64,000 bases of DNA, taken from NCBI GenBank assembly GCA_020057295.1, contig JAGVGF010000002.1:203878-267877 (forward strand), read 5' to 3'. A model generated the notes under the pieces. That model saw only the letters and a list, made by a program, of their open reading frames with translations. It was not told the origin of the DNA and made no database searches. This DNA is from an archaeon (GTDB taxonomy: Archaea > Nanobdellota > Nanobdellia > Woesearchaeales > UBA9642). How positions within the stretch are numbered: the first letter of the stretch is position 1; the number at the start of each line of letters is the position of its first letter. Shown in pieces: positions 19,783-23,502 of this stretch. Both the position numbers and the translations under genes were made by a program.

Positions 19783-20463
19783 TTAGTTTGTTTTTCTTTT
19801 AAGCTCAAAAGCGTAAAATACTCTATTCTCATCTACTTTATTTTCACCTATTAACTTTACTTTAAATCCTGCTTTTTCAGCTTTCCGCTTCATTTCTTCT
19901 ACAGCTCCAAATTTAGCCTGGCTAATATATATTCTTCCATTTTTCTTTAAATGATTATGTACTTGCTCAAAAAATGTGTTTTGCACATTCAAATTATCAT
20001 CCCAAACAGTTCGTTCGGCATAATCTGAAACTGAATGTGGTGTAAATGGAGGGTTCATTGTTATAACATCAAATTTTTCTTCAGGTTTTATTGCACTAAA
20101 CATGTCGGAAAGTCTTACTTCTATGACTGAGTCAAACTGGTGTGTTTTTACATTTTCTTTGGCGCTCTTAACAGCATTTGGACTGATATCTATTGCTAAA
20201 ACTTTCTTTGCTCCCTTTATAGCTGAAAATATAGCAATCACGCCAGAACCTGTACAGAGATCCAAAACATCATCACCAAGATTTATTTTATAATTCTTCA
20301 CAATTGCCTTGCTGTCTTCGTGTGGCCAGAAAACATTTGGATAAACAACAAATTTTTCTCCTAAATACTCTACAATTGTTCCTTTTCTAGGAGAATTTCT
20401 AAATTTATCTTGCATTTGCTTCTGAATTTCATAAATTTTTTTCATACTCTTTTTGTCAAGCAT
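19783..20463 (-). CDS. HemK/PrmC-like SAM-dependent methyltransferase
   Basis: VF.P.EDS, VLDLCTGSG, NPPF. Confidence 0.85.
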   Translation of the reverse strand: MLDKKSMKKIYEIQKQMQDKFRNSPRKGTIVEYLGEKFVVYPNVFWPHEDSKAIVKNYKINLGDDVLDLCTGSGVIAIFSAIKGAKKVLAIDISPNAVKSAKENVKTHQFDSVIEVRLSDMFSAIKPEEKFDVITMNPPFTPHSVSDYAERTVWDDNLNVQNTFFEQVHNHLKKNGRIYISQAKFGAVEEMKRKAEKAGFKVKLIGENKVDENRVFYAFELKRKTN

Positions 20464-20523
20464 AATTTAACCTAGAACTCATTATTTATAATTTTTTCCA
20501 TAGCTCTGCCTGATTATAAAAAT

Positions 20524-20566
20524 TTTGCCTTCACTTTGATCGTTGGGGGTGATGAGTGAAGGCAAA
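20524..20566 (-). terminator. Perfect 12-bp hairpin downstream of ftsZ followed by T-tract
   Basis: TTTGCCTTCACT (20524-20535) / AGTGAAGGCAAA (20555-20566). Confidence 0.55.
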
Positions 20567-20672
20567 GAATTACATCCATAACGGATCGTGAAAACAACTC
20601 AGCGTGATGCTAGATTCTTTGCAAACTATGTGATTATAATAATAAAGATAAAAAAAATAAAAGTGTAAGAGT

Positions 20673-21728
20673 TTATCTTACAATTTCTATGCCTAATTCA
20701 TCAGACATTCTTTGTCTGTTAGCCTTGGCTTGTTTTGGTGAGACCTTACCCATGATGTATGGACTCTTAACACCAGTAATGATTGTCATTACTGTTAATT
20801 TGCCCTTCATGGACTCGGAGACTCTTGCTCCCCATATTACGTTTGCGTCTTCATCCATTGACTCAGTTACTAACTCGCCAACTCTGCTGATTTCGTCCAA
20901 AGTCATATCATTTCCACCACTAATGTGAATGATTGCTCCTGTAGCTCCTTCGTAGCTAATCTCTAATAATGGATTGCTTAATGCTCCCTTAACAGCTTCT
21001 TCTACTCTGTTGTTAGTATCTGATGCACCAACACCAATAGCTGCTACTCCACCATCAGTCATTATTGCCTTTACATCTGCATAGTCTAAGTTGACTAAGG
21101 ATGGTATTGCAATTGTTTCTACGATTCCTTTAATCATTGTTGCTACTAATTCGTTTGCTACAGCGAATGCTTGTTGTACTGGTAAGTTACCAGCAATTTG
21201 TACTAGTCTGTTGTTATCAATTACTATTACTGTATCTGATACTTGTCGTAATTGTTGTAGGCCAAATTCTGCTTTGTCTACTCTTGCTCTCTCAATCTTG
21301 AATGGCATAGTTACTGTTCCAATAACTATAGCACCCATATCCTTAGCTGTTTGTGCGATTACTGGTGCTGCTCCAGTTCCAGTACCGCCGCCCATACCAG
21401 CACATATAAAGACCATGTCTGAACCTTTCAGTGCTTCCTTGATCTCTTGAATACTTTCTTGTGCTGCCTCAGTTCCTCTTTCCGGGAATCCACCACATCC
21501 TAATCCTCTAGTAACGTCCTTTCCTAATAAGAATTTTCTATCAGCTTCCATTAAATTCAGGTGTTGCTGATCTGTGTTACAGGCAATTATTTCTGCTCCT
21601 TTAATGCCTTTCTTGTATAGCCAGTTAACCATATTGTTACCAGCACCGCCAGCACCAATAACTTTTATGTTGGCTTGGCCAACTTCTACTCCATCATATC
21701 CATTTGCGTTTGTTTTCACGAAGTCCAT
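20673..21728 (-). CDS. ftsZ: Cell division protein FtsZ
   Basis: GAGGAGNN, GMGGGTGTG, NLDYAD, IWGA. Confidence 0.97.
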   Translation of the reverse strand: MDFVKTNANGYDGVEVGQANIKVIGAGGAGNNMVNWLYKKGIKGAEIIACNTDQQHLNLMEADRKFLLGKDVTRGLGCGGFPERGTEAAQESIQEIKEALKGSDMVFICAGMGGGTGTGAAPVIAQTAKDMGAIVIGTVTMPFKIERARVDKAEFGLQQLRQVSDTVIVIDNNRLVQIAGNLPVQQAFAVANELVATMIKGIVETIAIPSLVNLDYADVKAIMTDGGVAAIGVGASDTNNRVEEAVKGALSNPLLEISYEGATGAIIHISGGNDMTLDEISRVGELVTESMDEDANVIWGARVSESMKGKLTVMTIITGVKSPYIMGKVSPKQAKANRQRMSDELGIEIVR

Positions 21729-21819
21729 GTTCTCTAATCCCCCAGGTCGGGCCCTGTCTTTTTTTATAATTGATTAATCATCTTGCAATATGTATTTTGC
21801 AAAATATAGCTTTGACTAT

Positions 21820-21834
21820 GAAAATCTTTATATA
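21820..21834 (+). promoter_or_regulatory. BRE-TATA pointing away from ftsZ into the hairpin block (candidate antisense promoter)
   Basis: GAAAATC-TTTATATA, same form as promoters at 10839, 33276, 52865. Confidence 0.5.
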
Positions 21835-21861
21835 CTATGCTGTACTAACTATCCTTAGAAT

Positions 21862-21976
21862 AAGTTTTTATCTCGCCAAAGATAAACTTTCGTTATCGCG
21901 CTTTTCGCCAAAAAAGTACGATATCAGTTTTGTTTTTCGTATACTAGTGTTTTAAGTTTTCGCCAAAAAACTTTAA
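21862..21976. ncRNA. Candidate structured RNA: three stem-loops with identical CGCCAA (+) / UUGGCG (-) loops
   Basis: TCGCCAAA at 21873, 21905, 21960, each inside a different self-complementary stem. Confidence 0.5.
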
Positions 21977-22001
21977 TTGATTCTTTTAATCATTAAACTA
22001 A

Positions 22002-22015
22002 TATATAAAGCTTTC
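22002..22015 (-). promoter_or_regulatory. BRE-TATA pointing toward ftsZ
   Basis: Minus strand GAAAGC-TTTATATA. Confidence 0.5.
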
Positions 22016-22064
22016 TGTTGTTTAAACTATTGATTAGTAAATATCTTTTGTAATTTATATTCTA

Positions 22065-22712
22065 GAAAACATCTTTCAGAGTGATGTTCGTGCTTATTTG
22101 ATATTTTTTCGTTTCAGAATTTTTATTTTTCTAATAATATTTCTTTCTTACCCGGATATAAATTCATTGCAGCCATTTGTTGATATTGTATTTCTGTAAG
22201 CACAAGATGTGTTATTGTGAATGCATATTTTTCTTTTATTTTTACAATTATTTCTCTAATAAAACTATTATCAATGCTTTCTCCTATAACTAATAAGCTT
22301 GCCTTATCTTTTTCTTCACGACCATAAAGTATGATTGTTTTGATTCCTTCAATCTTATTAGCTTGATCAACGAATTCATCTATTATGGTTTTCTTTTCTT
22401 CAAATATTGTTTCTAGATATTTTGTTTTCTCATTATTTGTAAGTTGATATATCTTTAGATGTTTTATTTTAGTACGTTCAATTATTTCTAATTCCATTAA
22501 TTTTTGCAACAATCTATGTGTTGTAGCTAATGATACTTTTGTTTGCTTTGCAATCTCTTGAAGGTACAATTGTTGGTCCTTTTTCTTAAGGAACAACTTT
22601 AGAACAGACAGCATTTTCTTGTCAAACAGGTTTTCAAGTAATTTCTGATTCTCCATAATATGCTGTTTATAGACTCCTATATAAACTTTTCCATTTATGA
22701 AAACATCTTTCA
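22065..22712. repeat. 14-bp direct repeat GAAAACATCTTTCA (TGAAA-N5-TTTCA palindrome) at 22065-22078 and 22699-22712
   Basis: Exact copies flank the wHTH gene. Confidence 0.6.
22123..22656 (-). CDS. Winged-HTH protein fused to degenerate nucleotidyltransferase-like domain
   Basis: LQEIAKQTKVSLATTHRLL.KL HTH; IILYG...LLVI lacking GS/DxD; probable start MENQK behind a TATA. Confidence 0.75.
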   Translation of the reverse strand: MENQKLLENLFDKKMLSVLKLFLKKKDQQLYLQEIAKQTKVSLATTHRLLQKLMELEIIERTKIKHLKIYQLTNNEKTKYLETIFEEKKTIIDEFVDQANKIEGIKTIILYGREEKDKASLLVIGESIDNSFIREIIVKIKEKYAFTITHLVLTEIQYQQMAAMNLYPGKKEILLEK

Positions 22713-22830
22713 AAAATGATTTTTATTTATTTGTGTTTTGAGAATAATTTGTGCTCAAATAAAATTTATTTCTATATTTGTAATGTTTTTGCAACGGTTT
22801 GTGCTTCCTAGAAATTAGTTTTATACTAAC

Positions 22831-23502
22831 CTACCTTACGTGCCTTACATCCCTATATGACATGTCCATATCTTTTGTTCTTTGTATATCTCTTTCCTTT
22901 AAAGTTGTTTTTCTTAATAATGAACCTGTTTTAAGATCAATTTTTTGCAGTAATGCCTCTTCCATTCGTAACAATGTTTCTTCTCTTCCCAATATATCGC
23001 TTAGTATCTTGATATTTTCTTTATTGTTAACTATCTCTTCATCTGTTTTTTCCATAAGATCTATCTGCTTCTGCCATATAGGTTCTATTGATTTTAGCAA
23101 TCTCATAAGCTCATTCAAGTCATTAATCGTTTCTTGTTCCAATTGTCCAAGTTCTGATGACTCCTCATTTTTAATAAGTTCTTTCAAAATATCTATTCCT
23201 TTCAGACAAGATTTTTGTTCCTTATCATTATCTAATTCATCTGCATCGAACATTCCTTCAAGTTTTTCAATCTCAACCCGTACTGTTTTGAATGATTCTT
23301 TGCTTGGTTTTTTTAGAAACTCGTAATAGCTTTTAATCTTAGAATTATGATTAAGTATTATATTCTGGAATGATTTGATTACTTCATCCAAGTCTTCATC
23401 AAGGCCCTTAAGCTTATCAACACTTTCACGATAGTACTTTCCAGCATCCTTTTTCTTCTTTAATCCAAAAAATCCTTGATAAATGTGCTCATTAATTCTC
23501 AT
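22831..23502 (-). CDS. Hypothetical alpha-helical/coiled-coil protein
   Basis: 223-aa E/K/L-rich ORF. Confidence 0.65.
   Translation of the reverse strand: MRINEHIYQGFFGLKKKKDAGKYYRESVDKLKGLDEDLDEVIKSFQNIILNHNSKIKSYYEFLKKPSKESFKTVRVEIEKLEGMFDADELDNDKEQKSCLKGIDILKELIKNEESSELGQLEQETINDLNELMRLLKSIEPIWQKQIDLMEKTDEEIVNNKENIKILSDILGREETLLRMEEALLQKIDLKTGSLLRKTTLKERDIQRTKDMDMSYRDVRHVR

Follow-up and report, generated by a model that had tools for sequence, protein, structure and literature searches.

Hairpins with an invariant UUGGCG loop between facing promoter elements upstream of one ftsZ paralogue in woesearchaeal archaea

Little is known about how archaea set the level of FtsZ, and for the uncultured DPANN archaea hardly anything is known of how genes are regulated at all. 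Here, we asked what a group of inverted repeats in front of an archaeal ftsZ gene stands for, a folded RNA or a site in duplex DNA, and how it might act on the gene. The repeats were found in a stretch of 64,000 nucleotides (hereafter, the window; contig JAGVGF010000002.1, positions 203,878 to 267,877) from a genome of the order Woesearchaeales. This source genome comprises 1.2 Mb in 6 contigs, with 31% G+C and a marker completeness of 100%. The site of the repeats is a 394-bp AT-rich spacer between two minus-strand genes, a winged-helix gene and ftsZ. Judged from this spacer and its counterparts in related genomes, the inverted repeats are best read as RNA hairpins that form part of a conserved module controlling a single ftsZ paralogue.

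Hairpins with a fixed loop and covarying stems

As shown in Table 1, the ftsZ strand of the spacer carries three hairpins, H1 to H3, which have different stems and an identical UUGGCG loop; all three were found where the first-pass annotation of this DNA had placed them. In plus-strand letters, H1 reads TTTAAGTTTT-CGCCAA-AAAACTTTAA, with a perfect stem of 7 bp that extends to 10 positions if one mismatch is included. H2 reads TATCGCGCTTTT-CGCCAA-AAAAGTACGATA, and its stem of 12 positions contains one G.T and one C.A. H3 reads TTTATCT-CGCCAA-AGATAAA, with a 7-bp stem of another sequence (ATCT/AGAT beside the loop). The bare hexamer was not enriched in the window, where TTGGCG/CGCCAA occurred 12 times against 9.0 ± 3.3 expected; three of these 12 copies are clustered on one strand in a span of 93 nt. 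Of the 227 copies of the hexamer that the whole genome contains, only H1, H2 and H3 formed four or more consecutive flank pairs (7, 5 and 7, respectively), and the other 224 copies showed at most three. Similarly, a covariance model of the hairpin, built from the relatives' sequences, recovered H1–H3 in the source genome with the scores listed in Table 1, and the next match reached 21.4 bits (E 3.4).

For comparison, 110 ftsZ loci, 102 of them distinct, were gathered from related Woesearchaeota and Nanoarchaeia. In the 400 nt 5′ of ftsZ (39,031 nt in the 102 distinct loci), TTGGCG was present in 172 distinct copies on the ftsZ strand, and CGCCAA in none. The hexamer occurred in this upstream stretch in 71 loci, with 1–4 copies per locus, and was missing from the other 31, five of which have less than 400 nt of upstream sequence. 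The flanks paired at five or more of eight Watson-Crick positions in 127 of the 172 upstream copies versus 9 of the 105 TTGGCG copies elsewhere in the same loci (462,858 nt). Because the 127 rows used for scoring covariation had been pre-selected for at least five of eight pairs, this flank comparison is the unbiased test. Within these 127 hairpins, 82% of the stem cells were paired, and all four Watson-Crick types were present at the inner stem pairs. The covariation score was 0.822, compared with 0.189 ± 0.013 for shuffles, none of 500 of which reached the observed value, and with no more than 0.238 when the partner was slid.

The stem sequences differ in nearly every lineage, and the pairing is kept. 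When perfect hairpins of at least 5 bp with a 6-nt loop were counted in the leaders, the loop was TTGGCG in 93 cases and any other sequence three times at most, TTGGCA, TTGGCT and TTGGAG being single or rare variants. Four loci without TTGGCG (L084, L103, L105 and L029) carry repeats of TTGGCT, TTGGTA or TTGGAA at the same place. The pair next to the loop is U-A in 87 of the 127 hairpins, giving the consensus UUUUGGCGAAAA. Furthermore, RNAalifold gave back all three helices from 11 genus-level sequences, with compensatory changes CG/GC and UA/CG in H3. Since the stems covary and the loop stays constant, the repeats are elements of structure and not a duplex DNA site. This distinction had been proposed from the single sequence, and the upstream alignment of the relatives bears it out.

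The hairpins are restricted to one ftsZ. In 41 related genomes searched with the model (E ≤0.3), matches were obtained in 26, and 50 of the 52 matches lie directly 5′ of this ftsZ paralogue; of the two off-ftsZ matches, one is inside an open reading frame (ORF) and the other is a 21-nt copy of an ftsZ-leader hairpin of the same genome. In the source genome, the second ftsZ paralogue (contig C6) has a short leader with no hairpins. When the phylum was sampled evenly with 151 genomes, 21 of them gave matches (E ≤0.05). Among the newly fetched loci, 13 of 14 are followed by ftsZ on the same strand at a distance of 108–300 nt, and the remaining one stops at the contig end; four genomes in this set belong to another order of the class. 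A pan-genome pattern scan with TTTTGGCGAAN{15,45}TTTTGGCGAA returned at least 120 stretches. Among the 80 loci listed, 11 adjoin ftsZ, and these all come from Woesearchaeota, Nanoarchaeia or an unclassified archaeon; the remaining loci among the matches listed are mostly bacterial. Pattern matches from Huberarchaeum and Bathyarchaeota, those examined among the matches listed, were plain tandem duplications and were rejected. The RNA element is sharply defined and conserved across the class, and the gene it accompanies is central to division; many genes of these organisms are leaderless.

Facing promoter elements and the transcripts predicted from them

The hairpins lie between two promoter elements, each consisting of a B recognition element (BRE) and a TATA box: P1, the distal sense promoter of ftsZ, and Pas, which faces it on the opposite strand. 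The strict promoter word AAANNTTTAWATA occurs 74 times in the genome. Its orientation is informative, as 40 of the 74 copies lie 21–80 nt before an ATG-started ORF of at least 100 aa, versus 9 of 74 for the reversed word. In 21 of the 74, an ATG stands 21–25 nt after the TATA box, indicating that many genes are leaderless and that transcription starts ~22–24 nt after TATA. Two of the 74 strict motifs flank the hairpins and face each other. The first-pass annotation had put convergent starts near 21978 on the minus strand and 21858 on the plus strand; calibration on the leaderless genes gives ~21978–21981 and 21857–21858, in agreement with that proposal. P1 stands 273 nt before the ftsZ ATG and is the sole strict sense promoter motif within 400 nt of it. 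Pas, likewise a match to the strict consensus, has its predicted start at A21857/G21858 within TTAGAA; it is followed by no ORF of at least 100 aa for 1027 nt, and no ATG stands at the leaderless position.

Both elements are conserved in the relatives. In 62 of 67 hairpin loci, the first loop is preceded at 28–75 nt by a P1 TATA of the form TTTATATA/TTTAAATA (up to one mismatch), itself preceded by cAGAAAta. Pas, seen from the sense strand as TATATAAA/TATTTAAA (up to one mismatch), follows the last loop by 29–66 nt in 51 of 68 loci. In this view its flank continues with nnTTT (T at 47, 46 and 39 of the 51), which corresponds to the AAA of a BRE on the other strand, and TTCTAR stands ~20 nt upstream, which corresponds to TAGAA at the start position on the other strand. 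P1 and Pas occurred together in 46 of 67 loci, with a median inner TATA-to-TATA distance of 162 nt, and the four genomes of the other order show the same arrangement.

Further elements were noted around the two promoters. A candidate proximal sense promoter, P2, stands back to back with Pas; a P2-type block, agaaaTATATttt, follows Pas in many relatives, and P2 itself fails the strict consensus. The proximal TTATAAAA (21770..21763), which had been raised as a possible promoter of ftsZ, was not conserved in the genus-level relatives. A partly conserved palindrome, ACTA-N17-TAGT, brackets the Pas TATA box, and stems of at least 5 bp were present in 22 of 51 loci compared with 24% of shuffles. An RNA stem around the Pas TATA box was considered and rejected; the ACTA/TAGT arms are conserved in sequence and do not covary, and therefore look more like an operator palindrome. 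In many relatives, a conserved block tATATTttAcAgaAc stands 10–25 nt before the BRE of P1 (22040–22080 in the window). This block, a possible operator, is similar to the TATATTTTGCAA block that follows Pas.

The transcripts predicted from these elements are a long ftsZ leader and a shorter antisense RNA (Table 1). A leader of ~250 nt stands out in a genome with a large leaderless share. Strand signals in the relatives were examined at both ends of the hairpin block. The 22 nt before H1 on the ftsZ strand contain 49% A versus 30% T, with an A-run of at least four in 42 of 67 loci; on the other strand, this A-rich tract would become a U-tract after the last hairpin of the predicted antisense RNA. 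By comparison, a T-run of at least four after the last hairpin on the ftsZ strand occurred in 17 of 67 loci only, so that sense read-through into ftsZ is likely. These signals suggest a short antisense RNA together with a sense RNA that would read on into ftsZ. In one metatranscriptome run (share 0.05, 80% likeness), unstranded contigs of relatives cover ftsZ and the hairpins, and none covers the winged-helix gene. A 399-nt RNA-library contig of a relative joins the 5′ part of ftsZ to H3–H2, a weak indication because the contig is unstranded and DNA carry-over is possible.

Table 1. Positions of the hairpins, promoter elements, predicted RNAs and genes in the window
Feature	Position	Strand	Details
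Hairpin H1, nearest P1	21951..21976 (core 21954-21973)	-	loop UUGGCG 21966..21961; model 35.6 bits; RNAalifold helix
Hairpin H2	21894..21923	-	loop UUGGCG 21911..21906; model 29.6 bits; RNAalifold helix
Hairpin H3, nearest ftsZ	21867..21886	-	loop UUGGCG 21879..21874; model 29.4 bits; RNAalifold helix
P1, distal sense promoter of ftsZ	22016..22002	-	BRE AGAAAGC 22016..22010; TATA TTTATATA 22009..22002; predicted start ~21978-21981
Pas, antisense-facing promoter	21820..21834	+	BRE GAAAATC 21820-21826; TATA TTTATATA 21827-21834
P2, candidate proximal sense promoter	21802..21816	-	AAAGC-TATATTTT; uncertain
Predicted ftsZ leader, ~250 nt	21729..21981	-	from P1; H1-H3 in first ~120 nt
Predicted antisense RNA, ~130 nt	21857..21988	+	three CGCCAA loops; would end at T-tract TTCTTTT (21981-21987); placed by the Pas calibration
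ftsZ paralogue carrying the element	20673..21728	-	351 aa; Pfam Tubulin 5.7e-50, FtsZ_C 1.6e-31
Shine-Dalgarno GGGGG of ftsZ	21743..21739	-	
Two GCCAA words, ftsZ codons 17-20 (GGC CAA GCC AAC)	21670..21679 (codons 21669-21680)	-	side by side; complement UUGGC of the loops
Winged-helix (wHTH) gene	ORF 22123-22713	-	likely leaderless start M20 ~22656, ~177 aa

How the module may work

The explanation that we favour, tentatively and at somewhat less than an even chance, is that the long ftsZ leader with its UUGGCG loops is opposed by a ~130-nt antisense RNA with CGCCAA loops. Transcription from P1 would yield the leader, in whose first part each folded hairpin presents UUGGCG. Pas, facing P1 from the ftsZ side, would start a non-coding RNA fully complementary to the hairpin block, which would display CGCCAA loops and end at the U-tract near the P1 start. 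Kissing contacts of the U-turn-type UUGG(CG) loops with their complements would nucleate fast pairing, and the expression of ftsZ from P1 would be lowered or gated by this pairing and by the collision of the two transcriptions; head-on transcription, premature termination and changed leader folding are candidate routes to FtsZ output. As an extension, codons 17–20 of ftsZ, which contain GCCAA, may be a second partner of the loops, in which case the antisense RNA would compete with that contact. The firing of both promoters, the RNA ends, the pairing and the effect on FtsZ are what we infer here. A 'timer' for cell division, as first suggested for this locus, is speculation.

Several properties of the locus are consistent with such control. 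Complementary stem-loops with loops of 6–7 nt inside the overlap characterize kissing-loop pairs, and here three hairpins with 6-nt loops lie between the two predicted starts. An antisense pair needs no other genomic site, which fits the single-locus occurrence of the element. Wobble positions were counted as well: on the ftsZ strand, the loop-adjacent pairs include U.G 15 times, G.U twice and the A.C/C.A type never, and within well-flanked stems A.C/C.A (G.U in a plus-strand RNA) occurred 22 times versus 5 for G.T/T.G, counts that are not phylogenetically independent, some being inherited copies of one event. This pattern, with wobble on both strands, would fit two RNAs that both fold and is not decisive. 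The first-pass annotation had regarded UUGGCG as a YUNR loop; indeed, UUGG starts every loop and fits the YUNR rule, as described for loop-loop antisense systems in PMC4485353. Facing canonical promoters around identical U-turn-type loops make an architecture that is directly testable in vitro.

The element can be compared with known systems of two kinds. In the Inc RNA/repZ pair of plasmid ColIb-P9 and in CopA/CopT of plasmid R1, the target loop is 5′-UUGGCG-3′, a short antisense RNA carries its complement, and the promoters face each other. The present locus shares with them the UUGGCG target loop, and its complement would stand on a short antisense RNA made from the facing promoter element. 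However, the plasmid systems control bacterial plasmid replication; their promoters are of the sigma-70 kind, they use one or two recognition loops as well as RNase III, and their ribosome-binding site is associated with a leader peptide or a pseudoknot. The present one stands on an archaeal chromosome, with BRE/TATA promoters, 1–4 equal loops before ftsZ and no RNase III found. The antisense RNA of ColIb-P9 is also said, going by the title of a 1998 paper by Asano and Mizobuchi, to compete with an intramolecular contact. RNA I of ColE1, ~110–130 nt long with three stem-loops, is complementary to the 5′ end of the long RNA II and ends near the RNA II start; the predicted antisense RNA would be similar in its length, its three stem-loops and its end near the target start. 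In ColE1, however, loops of unlike sequence act on a replication primer, whereas here all loops have one sequence and would act on the leader of an mRNA. On the other side, the iron-responsive element (IRE) read by the iron regulatory protein (IRP) and the GGA hairpins read by CsrA combine a free stem with a fixed loop in one to several copies in an untranslated region. The present hairpins likewise lie in an untranslated region and keep one loop sequence while their stems vary freely. But IRE and CsrA hairpins serve known proteins and many mRNAs, whereas the matches here stand before one ftsZ paralogue only and form no regulon.

A search of Rfam 15 with positions 21000–23000 (E up to 10) returned no family, the only match being noise, SNORD42 at E 4.6 inside the winged-helix gene. 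Rfam likewise gave no sequence family shared with the plasmid antisense RNAs, so that the element is an analogue and not a member. It would work like plasmid-type antisense control or like protein-read arrays, belonging to neither by descent. For ColIb-P9, Asano et al. (1998, J Biol Chem 273:11826) name the UUGGCG motif in the title of their paper, which is cited in PMC10724649, PMC3753616 and PMC4374534. Cis-antisense RNAs from convergent promoters and on ftsZ are both on record in bacteria. RnaG of Shigella arises, according to the abstract of PMC2879508, from a promoter convergent with that of icsA and causes premature termination in the 5′ part of the mRNA, and StfZ of E. coli is described, in the abstract of PMC9628754, as a cis-antisense RNA to ftsZ mRNA. 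Unlike the present element, these bacterial RNAs have no repeated identical hexaloops, and StfZ overlaps the ftsA–ftsZ junction and not a dedicated leader. In the literature searched, supplementary files being outside the search, no description of such an element in archaea was found. If antisense control is true, the locus would be a clear archaeal case of chromosomal kissing-loop control, in striking convergence with the plasmid systems; either way, the hairpin is a new RNA motif absent from Rfam 15.

Several observations, besides the kinship behind the wobble counts, weigh against antisense control. Single-sequence folding gave unremarkable minimum free energy (MFE) z-scores of −1.0 and −1.3, so that the support for structure comes from comparison with the relatives and not from folding energy. 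A clear Pas at up to one mismatch is absent from 17 of the 68 hairpin loci, and Pas-like elements persist in some hairpin-less loci. No RNase III domain was found in the source genome, complete by its markers, and thus the usual bacterial executor of antisense control is missing. The predicted duplex would end more than 100 nt before the ribosome-binding site of ftsZ, and some RNA-library contigs of a relative also span the P1 promoter region. Furthermore, all six loop letters remained fixed, while the stems and the neighbouring gene diverged to ~40% identity; the flanks of 45 of the 172 TTGGCG copies are poorly paired, tandem unpaired copies included; and variant loops seem, by eye and in few loci, to change together within a locus, with UUGG alone fixed. 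An invariant loop and poorly paired copies are not demanded by a complementary antisense RNA, and a sequence-specific partner explains both better. Such a partner could be a dedicated RNA-binding protein that reads UUGGCG on the short stems of a hairpin array in the ftsZ leader, and at times in unpaired copies, and sets the translation or stability of the mRNA. We hold this main rival of the antisense reading to be somewhat unlikely, and in it the facing promoter would be separate or accessory; the two forms of control can coexist, for example with a Rom- or FinO-like helper. The free stem sequence, the variable copy number, the concerted change of the loop variants and the strong preference for U-A next to the loop would all suit a protein, and if one reads the loops, they point to an unknown division regulator. 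However, no candidate protein is at hand. The winged-helix gene was tried as the partner and rejected, since it is no commoner where hairpins are present, adjoining ftsZ in 34 of 68 loci with hairpins and in 21 of ~29 without. That a regulator should serve just one locus in each genome is possible, if unusual, and a protein alone leaves unexplained why a conserved, correctly oriented orphan promoter faces the array.

Pairing that does without a cis-antisense RNA is a further reading, in which the loops would contact GCCAA at ftsZ codons 17–20 or another RNA with (C)GCCAA, thereby shaping leader folding and translation. We consider it improbable, although the codon usage of the gene speaks for the contact. 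GCC at Ala19 creates GCCAA, the complement of UUGGC, and this codon is GCC in 45 of the 102 loci versus 1–18% at 25 other conserved Ala columns; GCC makes up 4.9% of the Ala codons genome-wide and 5.3% of those before Asn. Similarly, the density of GCCAA is higher over the first 120 nt of ftsZ (4.9 per kb) than in the rest of the gene (1.0 per kb). However, the association with the hairpins is weak, GCCAA standing in codons 16–20 in 40 of 66 hairpin loci versus 11 of 29 others (p 0.047, with kin not independent), which leaves 26 hairpin loci without it. The complementarity covers only 5 nt, and Pas has no place in such a scheme. For pairing in trans, no small RNA was recognised among the 10 non-ORF copies of TTGGCG/CGCCAA in the source genome; one of these, besides the three hairpins, sits in what we take to be the universal 907–926 region of 16S rRNA. 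Less probable still is an element at the DNA level, with a protein binding cruciforms or single-strand hairpins that belong to a replication origin or an operator. The AT-rich setting of the inverted repeats, the distance of 5.6 kb between the ftsZ locus and cdc6 in the source genome and the possible operator palindrome round the Pas TATA box are compatible with it. Yet the flanks differ between sites of one genome, so that no common duplex recognition sequence exists, strand polarity is strict (172 to 0), wobble-type mismatches are tolerated strand-specifically, and the element travels with ftsZ, not with cdc6. The replication primer or origin variant of the first-pass annotation is therefore not upheld: the element is always with ftsZ, and cdc6 lies 3.7–22 kb off in the family and 114 kb off in a complete genome of the same order. 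Nor were conserved duplex boxes of the origin recognition box (ORB)/oriC kind, which stand beside orc1/cdc6, found at the three sites, whose flanks differ. The antiterminator bulge of T-box leaders, in which UGGN receives the NCCA end of a tRNA, provides one more analogy: the loops could act as UGGN receptors that bind uncharged tRNA at its free NCCA 3′ end, which would link division to the supply of amino acids. All noted loop variants keep UUGG, the tRNA genes here encode no CCA, and several, from their 3′ ends, read as G73, a base that would be a partner for C in UGGC. We find this barely credible, as neither a T-box or other Rfam match nor a specifier element was seen in these simple hairpins, only 4 nt would pair, and Pas is again left over. 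To our knowledge, a tRNA-receptor leader has no archaeal precedent.

The hairpin behind ftsZ and the neighbouring gene

A strong hairpin on the minus strand (20524–20566) was observed ~106 nt after the ftsZ stop codon, with the stem TTTGCCTTCACT/AGTGAAGGCAAA and the loop CATCACCCCCAACGATCAA. Among 100 loci, 72 have a hairpin around a C-run in the 350 nt that follow the ftsZ stop, and the same stem together with the loop core TCACCCCCAAC appeared in most of the 45 rows viewed. The region of this downstream hairpin has an MFE z-score of −2.4, and Rfam returned only noise for positions 20300–20800. Its loop complements the GGGGG(U) ribosome-binding site of ftsZ, and it resembles what we take to be the 3′ end of 16S rRNA (AUCACCUCC). 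A wider scheme would combine this hairpin with the antisense RNA in a self-contained RNA toggle on a DPANN division gene, converged on the copy-number logic of enterobacterial plasmids with the same UUGGCG/CGCCAA hexaloop and polarity. In that scheme, the antisense RNA would compete with the GCCAA contact, the hairpin behind the gene would add a layer as an anti-Shine-Dalgarno mimic, and the antisense level would track dosage and could couple division to the replication of an origin-proximal ftsZ. Taken as a whole, we judge it unlikely.

The winged helix-turn-helix (wHTH) gene upstream of the spacer could not be assigned to a family beyond an IclR/Lrs14-like HTH. It adjoins ftsZ in 55 of the 102 loci across the order, with the other neighbours changing, and is likely, going by this arrangement, a dedicated regulator of the ftsZ locus. 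Its product may bind the ACTA-N17-TAGT palindrome over Pas.

The 21-nt copy of a leader hairpin found away from ftsZ in one of the related genomes (locus L141; G035:C2:20354-20383) is exact, reading CCTTTGTT-TTGGCG-AACAAAG in a second intergenic spot of that genome. Just 3′ of it stands a small ORF, whose product, judged by eye, is presumably ribbon-helix-helix or antitoxin-like.

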